A DNA stretch of 64,000 nucleotides from a bacterium endosymbiont of Escarpia laminata (GTDB taxonomy: Bacteria > Pseudomonadota > Gammaproteobacteria > Chromatiales > Chromatiaceae), in the NCBI GenBank assembly GCA_003660235.1, contig QGON01000065.1:87897-151896 (forward strand), read 5' to 3'. Positions within the stretch are counted from its first letter, which is position 1; the number at the start of each line of letters is the position of its first letter. Both the position numbers and the translations under genes were made by a program. This document shows positions 2,507-29,011 of the stretch, piece after piece. Under the pieces are notes generated by a model. The model made no database searches. It had not been told where the DNA came from and saw only the letters and a list, made by a program, of their open reading frames with translations.

Positions 2507-2713
2507 CCATTCATCTTAGGAGTCGACACCCGGACCTGTCAAGGTCAATTAGGGAAAAATTCGTTTGCGTTCAGAGGGTTACAAGAGGAAGTTACACAGG
2601 AATAAGCAGTGAATTTCCATTGAAAATACAGCAGATTAAAGCTCAAAGCTAAAGTGGAGTATCAAGAAAACCGGGGGAAATCCGGACCAACGGGAAGAGA
2701 GGGGAGAAAAGTG

Positions 2714-3062
2714 GGAGCCGGCCTGTAAGCCGGGTTCTGTCGAGAACAGTCATTCATCTGGGATGTGCGTCGCCGCACACCTCAAGCAACCTACCCGGGA
2801 ACAGTGCGGGCCGCACCAATGTTCCCCTATTTGGTCTTGCTCCGGGTGGGGTTTACCCTGCCACTATCGTTACCGACAGTGCGGTGCGCTCTTACCGTCA
2901 CCATTTCACCCTTACCGGCCTCCGAAGAGGCTTAGGCGGTATATTTTCTGCGGCACTTTCCGTAGGCTTTCGCCTCCCAGGCGTTACCTGGCACCCTGCC
3001 CTATGGAGCCCGGACTTTCCTCCGCTTCACCAAGGTAAAACAGCGACTGTCCGGCCGACTCC
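2714..3062 (-). ncRNA. rnpB: RNase P RNA (bacterial type A)
   Basis: Minus strand contains GAGGAAAGTCCGGGCTCCATAGGGCAGGGTGCCAGGTAACGCCTGG near the 5' end and GACAGAACCCGGCTTA near the 3' end, with complementary termini. Confidence 0.98.
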
Positions 3063-6768: not shown

Positions 6769-6853
6769 CCGGATCAGACTGAAAAAACATTTTGGCAGTC
6801 AGTTTTATTATTAATAATTTGTAACCTGAAGTTTCACTGAAATTCTTACCATC

Positions 6854-7721
6854 CTGAAAGTTGGCACTCAAGCCACCATGCGTAAGAGGAGTGAGACGAA
6901 AGTATTTTGCCGGGGATTGCGATGGCTGGGCCAAAGCCTGAGAAAATCCGCTGACAGTGCGTTATTGGCAATCAGCCTTCGCACATCGGAGAAGGCGAAA
7001 CTGGTTCGACCCTTTACGATATGACGCCGTTCAGGGTCGGCCTTGATGCGATCGGCATAAATCCAGGTAATCGTGGCGGCCATCATACAGAAATTCAGGT
7101 GATTGCTCACGGCATGGGCGTTACGCGTCTGGCTGCGGGCGCTGCCGATCTCCTGCTTGATCTCCTTGAAACCGGATTCAATCTTCCAGCGCGCCCCATA
7201 ATACTCGATGATCTTCTCAACACTTAGCGCCAGATCGGTGGTGAAGAATACGACCCAGCGGCTTTTACGATAGACCCACACCACCCGCACAGGGCAGCGC
7301 AGATTCTTGAGCATGAGCACTTGATCGTGGGCCAACACCTCTCGGTGCTTACCGTAGAGGAAGACCGGTAAAGAACGAGCCTGTTCCCGATAGTGAGTCG
7401 CCATATCTGCCACTGATCCCAGACGCCGGCCATACTTACGGGGCCGTCCACGCTGTCCGGCGCAAGGCGCCGGTGGCTGCTCGCAGAGCGTGATATTGGC
7501 CCGCAGTCGCGACAGCAACTCGAAGGAAGAGGTGGACTCACAGAGAGGTCGCCATAATCCAGCATTGCCAAACCAACTATCGGCCACCACCAATACCGGG
7601 GTATCGACAAAGTGTGCGGCCACTGCCATAAGCATCTCTGCAGCCTGGGTCATTTTGGATTGGAAGGCCACAGTACAGCCATCCTTCTGGGCCGTCTTGG
7701 CATTAGCCTTGAGGTCCTGCT
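6854..7721 (-). mobile_element. 5'-truncated IS4/IS701-like DDE transposase with one probable terminal repeat
   Basis: VLVVADSWFG and YGARWKIESGFKEIKQEIG motifs. The stop is followed immediately by GTGCCAACTTTCAG (6867-6854), a probable IS end. N-terminus is replaced by a non-coding structured segment; no partner repeat seen. Confidence 0.8.
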
Positions 7722-7920
7722 TCGCCACACCATTGCTTCGCTCGGTGCAGGCTACACAGCACTCCCTCAAATAATGGCGTGTCGGATGCGCTCTGCATAT
7801 TGCCTCCGCAGGCTACGGGATCTACGATCTCTTCGCCACTGCGGCAATACGCTCGCACCTACGCCTCCCGGGGACTACGCGCCTTCGCTTCGCTCTCCCT
7901 GGCGCGCAGCGAAGGAAGGG
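7722..7920. repeat. Structured non-coding element, copy A
   Basis: Several bulged hairpins; 7868-7913 matches 26822-26867 at 41/46 nt ungapped. Confidence 0.7.
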
Positions 7921-26344: not shown

Positions 26345-26609
26345 CTTATCTCCAAGCCTATTCAATAATATTCAAATAGGATTTCAAACCCCTAATAATC
26401 TTGCGGATTTAATGCTATAAGTTTACTGTTGGGGTGAGATTGTAGGAAGGCTGATCCGGCGAAATTGATGCCGCTCAGCAAAACAAAAACAATGGCTTGG
26501 ATTCACATCGCTTTCAAATCATGCAGCTGCGCCCGCTGCAAACCCGCTATGTGTTGCCACCAATTAAAAATATTATAAATTGGCCAAGTGAGTCTTCGAC
26601 CTCGTGATA

Positions 26610-26870
26610 GATTTTGGGACATCCCAGTCCCCAAAATCGACTCGGCCTTCGACAACCTGTTTGTGCCCCGGCCGTCCCGGTCACTGGCACTACGCGACAA
26701 CCTCGCAAGCTCGTTGCCGCTCCGTTGCCAGCTCCCGATGACTGGACGCCGCGCTCGGATGCCTACTTTGCTTCCCCTCTGGCGCAAGGCACGCCGGGTA
26801 AGCAGTGCGGCCTCGCGGCTACCGGGGACTACCAGCCTTCGCTTCGCTCTCCATGGCTGGCAGCGAATGG
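26610..26870. repeat. Structured non-coding element, copy B
   Basis: Inverted repeat GATTTTGGGAC/GTCCCCAAAATC (26610-26638), long bulged hairpin 26669-26751, and the 46-nt core shared with 7868-7913. Confidence 0.7.
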
Positions 26871-26890
26871 AAAAATCAGTTATTAGTGTT

Positions 26891-29011
26891 ATGTTGGAAT
26901 TGGATGCGAGCAGGCTTCCATCCGTTCCTCACGTACTTCTTCAATTAATAGACATCTGCAATCATGCCGACGTCTGTTTTAGCGACCTGGAAAATATCAT
27001 CCGCCAGGACGCTGCCCTCTCATCCAAGGTCCTTGCGGCAGCAAATTCTCCGATTTATAGACAGTGGGAATCCGAAGCCAACCTTGGACGATTACTGGTT
27101 GTACTGGGCTTAAATACCGTCAAAACCATCGCCATGACAAGTGCGGTGCAAGACCTGTTCTCCCAGGTCGACGACTCTGTCAGTCAATATATGAATGAAA
27201 TCTGGCTGCACTCCCTGACATGCGCTCATACAGCACGCGCAATTGCACGTTTAACCACCTACCAATCACCCGATGAGGCCTACATTGCCGGGCTGTTACA
27301 TCGCGTAGGACAATTGGTCCTGCTACGGAACTTCCCCACTGAATACTCGGGCATTTCCGTGGAGCCCTTTTCCGGGCAGGAACTGGAAAAACTTGAGAAT
27401 GAAAAACTGGGCTTCACCCACAGCGAGGTAGGGGCCTACCTGATCGACAGCTGGCACCTGCACTCTTTCATGGCCGATGCCGTGCACTACCAGTACGAGC
27501 CTGCTGTACTGATTCAAGACAGCACACCCCTGGTAAAAATCATTAACCTTGCAAGCCAGTTAAGCAGCCTCAACGGCACTCCGGACAACACAGTTTTCAA
27601 ACAGGCTGATGAGCTGTTTGGATTGACCCAGCCACTGCTCGAAGAGATGTTGAACAGCGTTGATGAGCAGGTCAGCAGCACCGCCAAAAGCCTCGGAATC
27701 TCACTAACGAAATCAGCAAAGACCGGTAATAGGGGGATAGACACGACTCCCGCACGCAAGCAGCTGAAAGAGCAGTTAAAAGAGCGGATAAAAACGGCGG
27801 CCATCGTCGGCATGGCCTCACATCGAACCGGACCACAGGTTTCATTAAGTGAGACACTCGCCTCTATTGTCCAAAATGCCCGTATCCTTTTCGACCTGAC
27901 CCCAATCAGGGTTTTTCTCTATGATCAGGAGCTGAATCAACTCACATATACCCCTTCAGAAGAGACCGAGCCTGGACCTTTCGCTGGCATCTCAATTTTC
28001 CTGGAAGCTGGCAGAAGCATGATTACTGACTCCCTGCTGCAGGGCGAGCCGAGGCATTGGCTCGAAAACAGCGAAAACAGATCCATCTCTATTGTGGATC
28101 GCCAGATCCTGACCCTTATGAAAAATAACGGGTTACTTTCGATTCCCTTGATAACTGAAGGGCGTATCGTCGGCGTTCTGGTCGCTGGCATTGAACAGGT
28201 GGACTGGAACAGAATCGAGTCCCACCTTATGCTGGTATCAACCTTTGCCGATGGGGCAGCAAAATCCATCCAGCAACAAATTACCATCATCCGCTCCGAA
28301 GAGGAGCGGATTGAAGAAGCACGATCAGAATTCCAGCTGCACGCAAGAAAAATCATTCACGAAGCCAACAACCCTCTCGGCATCATTAACAACTACCTGC
28401 ATATTCTTGGCACGAAACTGGGAGAGGATCATGCTGCTCACGAGGAACTTCGTATCATCAAGGATGAGATCGAACGTGTAGGAAATATCCTTCTGCGCCT
28501 GCGCGACATGCCTTCCGACAACGGACTTGAGCAAGGATTCGTTGACCTCAATAGTCTGATCCTGGATGTCGAAAAGATTTTTCACACCTCACTTTTCGTA
28601 ACCCATGACATCAGTGCCCAGCTTGACCTAGAAACCTCTCTGCCTCCGGTTGCCGGCAGTCGCAATACCCTTAAACAGATACTCACCAACCTGATAAAAA
28701 ATTCGGTTGAAGCGATGAGTGATGGAGGGGAGATTACTTTAATCACGAAAGATAAAATCAACATGAATGGTAAGCACTACGTTGGGATAGAGGTCATTGA
28801 TAACGGACCAGGCATTCCCGACGAGATCATGGAGAATATTTTTTCGCCGGTAAAGAGCACCAAGGGAGCCGATAATGCAGGCCTTGGTCTCACCATCGTA
28901 AAAAATCTTATTAACGAACTTTCAGGCTCCATCAGTTGCACCTCAAGCCATGAAAAAGGCACAGCATTCCAGATTCTCTTACCCAGGAGAATCCCCATGG
29001 GGGACACGTAG
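26891..29011 (+). CDS. HDOD-GAF-histidine kinase
   Basis: Start moved to ATG 26891 (MLELDASRLPSVP). HDOD motifs (IIRQDAALSSKVLAAANS, AGLLHRVGQL), H-box HEANNPL and a HATPase domain. Confidence 0.88.
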   Translation: MLELDASRLPSVPHVLLQLIDICNHADVCFSDLENIIRQDAALSSKVLAAANSPIYRQWESEANLGRLLVVLGLNTVKTIAMTSAVQDLFSQVDDSVSQYMNEIWLHSLTCAHTARAIARLTTYQSPDEAYIAGLLHRVGQLVLLRNFPTEYSGISVEPFSGQELEKLENEKLGFTHSEVGAYLIDSWHLHSFMADAVHYQYEPAVLIQDSTPLVKIINLASQLSSLNGTPDNTVFKQADELFGLTQPLLEEMLNSVDEQVSSTAKSLGISLTKSAKTGNRGIDTTPARKQLKEQLKERIKTAAIVGMASHRTGPQVSLSETLASIVQNARILFDLTPIRVFLYDQELNQLTYTPSEETEPGPFAGISIFLEAGRSMITDSLLQGEPRHWLENSENRSISIVDRQILTLMKNNGLLSIPLITEGRIVGVLVAGIEQVDWNRIESHLMLVSTFADGAAKSIQQQITIIRSEEERIEEARSEFQLHARKIIHEANNPLGIINNYLHILGTKLGEDHAAHEELRIIKDEIERVGNILLRLRDMPSDNGLEQGFVDLNSLILDVEKIFHTSLFVTHDISAQLDLETSLPPVAGSRNTLKQILTNLIKNSVEAMSDGGEITLITKDKINMNGKHYVGIEVIDNGPGIPDEIMENIFSPVKSTKGADNAGLGLTIVKNLINELSGSISCTSSHEKGTAFQILLPRRIPMGDT

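Follow-up and report, generated by a model that had tools for sequence, protein, structure and literature searches.

What kind of entity is the structured repeat that occurs twice in a 64,000-nucleotide (nt) stretch of the genome of a bacterial endosymbiont of the tubeworm Escarpia laminata? The stretch, here called the window, comprises positions 87,897 to 151,896 of contig QGON01000065.1 (C65:87897-151896) in assembly GCA_003660235.1, the source assembly of this study (G000; 4.25 Mb in 71 contigs). A preliminary description made from the sequence had pointed to 46-nt repeats at 7868-7913 and 26822-26867, and had proposed an unknown structured repeat family with compensatory covariation, either a non-autonomous substrate of an HUH or rolling-circle enzyme or an undescribed class of RNA. 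The coordinates, the ungapped identity (41 of 46 positions) and the two compensatory pairs that make up four of the five differences (GCGCC/GGCGC versus CAGCC/GGCTG) were all reproduced, and the existence of such a family was borne out by further copies and by a conserved fold. We are practically certain that the repeat is the end of a non-autonomous mobile DNA element, which has inserted recently and precisely into many positions of this genome.

A precisely inserted 281-nt element

A search of the whole assembly with the 46-nt pattern, allowing up to three mismatches, gave 50 matches as compared to none for the reversed control, so that the repeat is far beyond chance. The 46-mer consists of 44 nt of an element terminus and 2 nt (AA) of flanking sequence, identity ending exactly after ...GCAGCG. 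An alignment of all copies revealed that 47 of them have 237 more nt upstream in common, resulting in a unit of 281 nt; 46 of these are identical and one carries a single substitution. On the functional strand, which is the minus strand of the window, the element reads 5'-CGCTGCC...CACTTG-3', and the two ends do not form inverted terminal repeats. The similar architecture that had been noted in the upstream 150-200 nt of both copies is real and is simply the remainder of the same element. The two copies had also been treated as equivalent members of one family, of which the common family stands and the equivalence does not: copy B is complete, while copy A is what remains of a truncated member of a sister subtype and is joined to a fragment of an IS701 transposase.

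26585..26865, minus strand: complete type-B element (copy B), 281 nt, 5'-CGCTGCCAGCC...GACTCACTTG-3', delimited by 47 aligned copies and by empty sites
26866..26869, minus strand: target-site flank, 5'-C-N-N-N directly before the element, the C corresponding to the G at 26869 of the plus strand
7714..7911, minus strand: copy A, the 5' 198 nt of a type-A element, its 3' side lost and adjoining an IS701-family fragment

Six sister genomes lack copy B, and their empty sequence corresponds exactly to the joined flanks, which leaves the boundaries unambiguous. A pooled query of 26 joined flanks uncovered another 18 empty sites, spread over two sister genomes and each aligning with zero gaps. Thus, at each of 19 loci, the insertion has added exactly 281 bp, with neither duplication nor loss of target sequence. 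On the minus strand, a C is found at position -4 before the element in 46/46 copies in the source assembly and in 29/32 insertions in other taxa; it is the only invariant base, with weaker preferences for T or G at -5 and for T at -1. Since the empty sites already have this C, it reflects a target preference and lies outside the element. At the 3' end of the element itself, C(T/C)TG, a C occupies the same -4 register.

About one third of the copies break open reading frames (ORFs) longer than 250 codons, with similar numbers in either orientation, which rules out an intron. These ORF-interrupting copies fit a recent burst in a host-restricted symbiont. Three candidate identities were rejected. 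A group II or other self-splicing intron, for which a 5' GUGYG and a 3' AY, sense orientation in host genes and a size of at least 400 nt would be expected, is incompatible with the ends CGCUGC and CUUG, the missing Rfam match, variants of 111 nt and the use of both ORF orientations; an in-frame cassette or intron (285 nt corresponding to 95 codons) fails because NNNG is the target, the element proper is 281 nt, and both ORF orientations are used; and a classical miniature inverted-repeat transposable element (MITE) would have terminal inverted repeats and a target-site duplication, neither of which is found.

A stationary functional RNA gene or cis-regulatory RNA (a riboswitch or small RNA) that is kept by selection would also show a covarying, conserved fold, and some copies are indeed located directly upstream of start codons. 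However, such a gene would not be expected in 47 identical or nearly identical copies with unrelated flanking genes, about a third of them in long ORFs. The sites that are empty in sister genomes and the insertions that are polymorphic between isolates refute this explanation, at least as the sole one, and we attach next to no weight to it. The preference of the preliminary description for a mobile element over a riboswitch, founded on unrelated flanking genes, is thus upheld by the empty sites, while its suggestion of an independent class of noncoding RNA is not supported, with copies in both orientations inside ORFs as well as in intergenic DNA.

The family is widely distributed. An exact-pattern scan of species-representative genomes returned at least 108 loci in other Gammaproteobacteria, the listed loci including the Lamellibrachia anaximandri symbiont, Chromatiaceae, Sedimenticolaceae, Methylomarinum, Coxiellaceae, Acidiferrobacterales and others. 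Many loci of the L. anaximandri symbiont are situated at contig ends, which indicates that the element breaks assemblies; one protein of the source assembly is 100% identical to a contig of a gammaproteobacterial endosymbiont of L. anaximandri. The 17-nt loop motif of the element (up to one mismatch) occurs in 31 of 301 evenly sampled gammaproteobacterial genomes and is multi-copy in 11 of them, with a maximum of 143 copies in a complete 3.45-Mb genome from a different family (G067). Full-length relatives measure 230-310 nt (about 305 nt for the full-length type-A element), and the size range across other taxa extends from 111 to 310 nt, the smallest being a mini version from a Coxiellaceae lineage that is reduced to the 5' module, a single hairpin and the 3' tail and is still multi-copy.

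The family is non-autonomous wherever examined. Among 32 loci from many taxa with enough downstream sequence, there is no consistent neighbouring ORF, the genes found there being unrelated host genes, so that the expectation of an HUH, reverse transcriptase or transposase gene beside other copies was disappointed. No autonomous copy was found among the at least 108 loci of other taxa or in the source assembly, and outside the known elements there is no second copy of the 3' module. A blastn search of a plasmid collection gave no match to the element. No Rfam family matches: at gathering thresholds only RNase P was detected in the whole window, and at E values up to 10 the element gave only a chance psRNA2 match, which is in the flank. 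In the literature on tubeworm or lucinid symbionts and transposable elements, we found no description of the element.

The folded strand and its orientation relative to replication

A fold was derived from an alignment of 14 divergent copies (323 columns). The consensus has 52 pairs in 10 helices, and 23 of the pairs show changes on both sides. Its parts, in copy B, are:

26828..26865, minus strand: 5' terminal hairpin P1, a 10-bp stem with the conserved loop AUGGAGAGCGAAGCGAAGG, followed by an invariant GUAGUC; the core of the 46-mer
26630..26827, minus strand: internal domain closed by helix P2 (CCCCGG/CCGGGG), with two or three long bulged hairpins; lower boundary approximate
26610..26638, minus strand: 3' subterminal hairpin, GAUUUUGGGGAC-UGGGAU-GUCCCAAAAUC
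26585..26609, minus strand: 3' tail of 25 nt, UAUCACGAGGUCGAAGACUCACUUG, ending in C(U/C)UG at the element boundary

In this alignment 94.6% of the paired cells are able to pair, compared to 83% in column shuffles (a value reached by 0 of 500 shuffles), and the proportion falls to 35-48% when partners are slid by 1-3 columns. The fold is specific for the minus strand, which scores z=-3.2 with RNA parameters and z=-2.3 with DNA parameters relative to shuffled sequences; the plus strand (z=-0.2 and -1.25, respectively) folds no better than shuffles. The 10-bp minus-strand stem with two G-U wobbles and a conserved purine-rich loop, as originally described, was recovered, and the two wobbles (G2-U38 and G5-U35) turned out to be invariant in all 14 divergent relatives. 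On the opposite strand, such G.U/T pairs would turn into A-C mismatches, so that they fix which strand folds. Pairs 7-33 and 8-32 of P1 covary (CG/GC/AU), and the loop, which may also be written as GGAGAGCGAAGCGAAGG, is invariant across the 14 copies. GTAG is invariant 5' of helix P2, and the earlier count of this word on the minus strand, five in copy A and four in copy B, is correct. In the internal domain, the sequence differs among subtypes while the architecture, as judged from the consensus fold and pair counts, is conserved. The stem of the 3' hairpin (helix 10) is strongly covarying, 7 of its 10 pairs having double changes, and the 3' tail partly pairs with sequence 5' of this hairpin (a GUC/GAC helix).

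The orientation of the copies is also far from even. In the source assembly, 38/47 copies have the folded strand on whichever strand is locally G-rich (p=2.5e-5), with the same outcome for windows of 20, 50 and 100 kb, and this is also the case for 12-13 of 18-19 older copies in sister genomes. In the complete genome G067, where GC skew places the replichore of positive skew at about 0.6-2.2 Mb, the folded strand is on the plus strand in 56 of the 64 copies of that region among the matches listed, which cover all but 43 of the 143 copy positions; in nineteen 20-kb windows sampled from this genome, 32 of 40 copies obey the strand rule. The G-rich strand has leading-strand sequence, which means that it serves as the lagging-strand template. 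Relative to the genes that they interrupt, copies are about evenly oriented, which connects the bias with replication rather than with transcription.

Ton-Hoang and colleagues (2010) reportedly found a strong preference of the active strand for the lagging-strand template, into which IS608 and ISDra2 integrate as single strands. The same signature of single-strand integration into the lagging-strand template is described for IS608 and ISDra2 by Lavatine et al. 2016 (PMC5027513) and in PMC6006769. We infer a single-stranded intermediate from an insertion pattern that matches single-stranded DNA transposition, and consider it likely that the element moves at the replication fork as a single strand in folded form.

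A different process could produce a strand-specific fold, namely RNA-mediated mobility, in which a structured minus-strand transcript would be reverse-spliced or reverse-transcribed into single-stranded DNA at the fork, the element being a new small retro-element or ribozyme. The G-U pairs and the better score with RNA parameters are in its favour, as are the conservation of both termini and the precise insertion without duplication. A lagging-template bias is also known for some group II introns, and group II introns that have no endonuclease use forks. Moreover, the genome encodes group II intron reverse transcriptases, and RNA-seq assemblies of a relative contain sequence of the element. 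Nevertheless, a group II signature is missing (neither a GUGYG start nor domain V, and no Rfam match at E values up to 10), and the multi-copy variants of 111 nt are too small for self-splicing ribozymes of known kinds. Copies within ORFs are equally frequent in both orientations, many copies are located where no promoter is expected, and the target shows no conservation resembling exon binding. Most of the reverse transcriptase matches in the assembly belong to retrotransposon contigs of the animal host, and the RNA-seq contigs are unstranded and may include DNA. Taken together, we regard an RNA-mediated process as quite improbable.

Two sets of observations concern these data sources. Over 26400-27100, a transcriptome assembly of a related organism (X18/X19) has the locus empty, skipping exactly 281 nt; separate element-like contigs of about 95% identity reach 7-11 times the depth of the flanks (more than 100-fold in some bins), and, being unstranded and multi-copy, are uninformative with respect to a discrete RNA. 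In the source assembly, the small contigs C42, C47, C48 and C64 (3-6 kb) contain R2-like elements without long terminal repeats (zinc fingers, reverse transcriptase and C-terminal endonuclease, in frames of 800-1300 aa), together with Gypsy-like Gag and reverse transcriptase/RNase H-integrase sequences, and represent tubeworm host DNA that was binned with the symbiont. An apparent tracking of element copy number by reverse transcriptase abundance was dismissed for this reason, the extra matches being animal R2-like and Gypsy sequences that inflate the counts for G000 and G007.

Candidate enzymes

Returning to DNA transposition, we propose the following mechanism. The active strand would be the minus strand of the window, folding into a 5' hairpin with its conserved 19-nt loop followed by GTAG, a central domain of variable sequence, and the 3' hairpin with the 25-nt tail, so that the two ends of the element would be brought together. 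A single-strand nuclease/ligase acting in trans would then cut after the C(T/C)TG at the 3' end of the element and after 5'-CNNN in the target, and would splice the element precisely, mainly into the lagging-strand template at forks. The logic would be the "peel-and-paste" of IS200/IS605, and the catalyst would be a Y1 HUH transposase acting in trans, most likely one of subclass 2.1 (TIRYT). To this reading as a whole, a folded single-strand, non-autonomous transposon that is mobilised in trans by a Y1 HUH enzyme with TIRYT as the leading candidate, we give an even chance, and mobilisation by a Y1 HUH enzyme, a chemistry that we deduce, is likewise evenly balanced. Of the two identities originally suggested, a non-autonomous HUH substrate fits best, given the precise and duplication-free insertion, the asymmetric hairpin ends and the lagging-template orientation. 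Its rolling-circle variant of the IS91 type has to be abandoned, as no Y2 transposase (PF04986) is found in the source assembly despite 47 fresh copies; IS91 rolling-circle transposition, in which a CTTG or GTTC target would adjoin one end, was also rejected on the grounds that the element ends in CTTG while its target is CNNN.

Subclass 2.1 of the TnpA-Y1 proteins occurs in about 15% of bacterial strains and is without a known REP partner. Four Y1 proteins that carry the motifs NHVH and YIELNP and measure 239-285 aa are encoded in the source assembly (C20:26653-27408, C22:273205-273921, C7:36805-37533 and C19:760-1614); they are above the cut-off for Pfam Y1_Tnp and score 69-72 bits against NF047646, below its cut-off of 80. 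The signature of subclass 2.1, as given in Table 1 of Quentin et al. 2018 (PMC6006769), comprises NHVH, YIELNP, a length of about 238 aa and a C-terminal extension. By these criteria, the four proteins are assigned to subclass 2.1, the TIRYTs. TIRYT genes are located beside GGGGWSAS repeats (Di Nocera et al. 2013, PMC3733652), and two of the four TIRYT genes are flanked by repeats containing GGGGACAG and by hairpins that fit this motif. For subclass 2.1, PMC3733652 and PMC6006769 report only inverted repeats beside the gene and no dispersed REP-like substrate.

Three observations link the element to these enzymes. The apex of the element's 3' hairpin, GGGGACUG, resembles the GGGGWSAS motif that flanks TIRYT genes and, taken as GGGGACTG...GTCCC, fits it at 7 of 8 positions. 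Of the 11 genomes with at least three copies of the loop motif, 10 have a TIRYT-like gene (E<=1e-15), as compared to 129 of the 289 others (class-level sample). Finally, there are three independent insertions of the element in TIRYT-like genes, each with the folded strand on the sense strand of the gene: at the HUH motif in another isolate of the symbiont, after residue ~40 in a Chromatiaceae metagenome-assembled genome, and after residue ~182 in G067. As TIRYT-like genes account for less than 0.1% of a genome, about 0.2 such events are expected among the approximately 290 insertions seen. Cognate repeats that are inserted in their own tnpA gene are documented for RAYT subclass 2.4 (PMC6006769). 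If an enzyme acts preferentially close to its site of synthesis, insertions into its own gene would be expected.

The first of these insertions was found in the L. anaximandri symbiont, isolate Eratosthenes 1 (contig 40; L086), where a type-B element interrupts the TIRYT gene at its HUH motif (...HAYVLMTN/HVHLL, the slash marking the insertion). The same gene is intact in the source assembly (C20:26653-27408), which represents an insertion polymorphism within the symbiont population.

That the enzyme is specifically a TIRYT is nevertheless a tentative assignment, which we hold less likely than not, and that the element family is the missing mobile substrate of the orphan TnpA-Y1 subclass 2.1, with its internal architecture as part of that substrate, is an attractive yet doubtful extension of it. 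Several points weigh against both of these and against the mechanism as a whole. The link between enzyme and element is statistical; the co-occurrence is modest (binomial p ~0.003, uncorrected for phylogeny), TIRYT-like genes being common (46% of sampled genomes) and occurring also in the sister genome G003, which is nearly devoid of element copies. The flanks of the TIRYT genes are without similarity to the element (blastn-short, Y1 genes of the source assembly), and the GGGGAC motif is not kept in all subtypes (Coxiellaceae, G067). In the assembled contigs, no circular junction or excision product was seen.

The remaining difficulties emerge from a comparison with IS200/IS605 and the PATEs derived from such systems. 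The element shares with them the precise insertion without target duplication, the lack of inverted terminal repeats, asymmetric ends with subterminal hairpins, an active strand on the lagging-strand template, a presumed Y1 HUH catalyst and, less clearly, insertion in one orientation 3' of a short target word. In contrast to them, its left and right end hairpins are unlike each other and unrelated, the left hairpin adjoins the boundary (it begins only 1-6 nt away), and the target has one constrained base, the C at -4, instead of a defined tetra- or pentanucleotide. An autonomous partner with the same ends is lacking: despite the fresh burst of 47 copies, canonical IS200 TnpA is represented in the source assembly by two fragments only, canonical TnpA loci in sister genomes are without element ends, and none of the 8 genomes of the genus has TnpB (PF07282). 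The element furthermore maintains a large and complex internal fold, which known HUH transposons do not need and which none of them explains; this hints at a role for RNA or at a different enzyme. A carrier of a TnpB/IscB guide RNA (omega RNA) was rejected, as there is no TnpB in the genus and no Rfam match to HEARO or IS605-orfB; the IscB protein was not searched for.

A non-autonomous element acting at the DNA level might indeed be moved by another enzyme, be it a different single-strand recombinase, a classical RAYT, an integron-like tyrosine recombinase or an uncharacterised protein. Its anatomy suits any enzyme whose substrates are folded single strands at forks, and the association with TIRYT is of a statistical nature. 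A classical RAYT with its own 23-copy family of GTAG REPs is present, and the element has an invariant GTAG 5' of P2; however, this RAYT gene is already flanked by its own cognate REPs. Recombination of the integron type should have left conserved core sites at the junctions, and none were seen; an IS110-family transposase as the mover is excluded by the lack of a common target, and no other candidate shows any association, IS91 and TnpB being absent. We consider another enzyme rather unlikely. The RAYT itself, a protein of 154 aa (gene at C11:471029-471490; NF047646, 143 bits), has the REP ATCGCGGCGAGGCGCCGCTCCTACA on both sides (C11:470979-471535 with the gene); this REP is GTAG-headed on the other strand and occurs in 23 copies in the source assembly, so that a textbook REPtron exists beside the new element.

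A further possibility was raised by contigs C39 and C70, where a transposase gene (NF033542, 348 bits) is located about 330 nt downstream of the 44-mer. The 46-mer could then be an end (left-end noncoding sequence or bridge RNA) of an insertion sequence (IS) of the IS110/IS1111 family, a type with structured noncoding ends and no target duplication, and the 281-nt copies would be its deletion derivatives. However, the IS has ends of its own, with subterminal inverted repeats (GGTCTCCTCCC) and a TG core at either side, and is nested in the 3' hairpin of the element, the rest of the hairpin and the tail resuming after the IS. There are 2 IS copies versus 47 elements. A DEDD transposase gene would be expected alongside every such IS end, whereas just 2 of about 51 copies have the transposase, and in other taxa no element carries its gene. 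A bridge RNA would specify one target of about 11-14 nt, whereas the 46 targets share one base only. This explanation is effectively refuted.

The two IS copies (C39:2710-4114 and C70:592-1935), which are 97% identical and have a 338-aa transposase and about 280 nt of noncoding 3' end, are both inserted at the same TG of the 3' hairpin (GATTT[TG]GGGAC), in a type-A or type-D element. The element is thus a natural landing pad of an IS110-family, RNA-guided IS. This resembles the targeting of repeated hairpins (REP, attC, Tn21 ends) by IS1111/IS110 elements, an IS of this family occupying one defined position of the 3' hairpin in two diverged copies, with the difference that the IS is a guest in the element and not its driver.

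Surroundings of the two copies, related systems and significance

Copy A is 95% identical to the type-A copy on contig C39, a similarity that is confined to 7714-7911. Its neighbour is:

6868..7713, minus strand: N-terminally truncated gene for an IS701-family DDE transposase (NCBIfam NF049999, 227 bits, profile positions 157-404 of 412)

The listed ORF of this transposase continues to 7770 by reading into copy A. The IS701 fragment is unique in the genome and stands outside the element family; an interpretation of the repeat as an IS701 end was discarded for these reasons. At the 3' end of the fragment, 86 nt (6826-6911) are 99-100% identical to the ends of contigs C65 (1-86), C41 and C6, and are probably the terminus of an IS701-family IS that is present in several copies and interrupts the assembly. 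Copy B is located one base upstream of the ATG of an HDOD/histidine-kinase gene (true start at about 26867; window positions 26866-26872). The plus strand of the element reads open in frame from a GTG at 26588, and ORF callers may thus add 93 spurious codons to this gene. The RNase P RNA of the window is a full-length bacterial class A molecule (2710-3062, minus strand; 349 bits, E 7e-114).

The element belongs to none of the groups with which it was compared, namely IS200/IS605 PATEs, REP/REPINs, MITEs, IS91, IS110 ends and group II introns, and it works most like the first two. With REPs and REPINs it has in common that they are short, gene-less repeats, presumably mobilised in trans by a single-copy, domesticated Y1 HUH transposase (RAYT), that a GTAG word is found 5' of a stem, and that repeats sometimes occur inside tnpA (subclass 2.4, PMC6006769). 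Unlike REPs, which are palindromes of 20-40 nt, and REPINs, which are symmetric doublets of about 100 nt, both extragenic and flanking the RAYT gene, the element is 281 nt long, asymmetric (the reverse complement of its 3' end is unlike its 5' end) and multi-helical, is often found inside ORFs, and flanks no Y1 gene. The similarities to TIRtrons, which comprise the GGGGWSAS-type repeats at two TIRYT genes versus the element apex, the co-occurrence and the three insertions in such genes, are to be set against the fact that the element is not a copy of the gene-side inverted repeats, a functional link being our interpretation.

The results describe a new and widespread family without an Rfam match, which occurs in roughly a tenth of the sampled gammaproteobacterial genomes (31/301), in many families and in up to 143 copies, and which breaks assemblies and disrupts genes. 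In the tubeworm symbiont, a very recent burst has led to 47 copies, about a third of them in long ORFs, making the element a concrete agent of the genome erosion that is seen in host-restricted symbionts. The combination of clean insertion, a one-base target rule, a strand bias of about 80% and a multi-helix fold extends the known range of single-strand transposition of the "peel-and-paste" kind, and the element offers a testable substrate hypothesis for the large TIRYT/subclass 2.1 family of HUH enzymes. If that hypothesis is true, TIRYTs would be active, trans-acting single-strand transposases with a minimal, one-base target rule, enzymes that would recognise an elaborately folded single strand of 100-300 nt, its internal architecture included, and not the ends alone.

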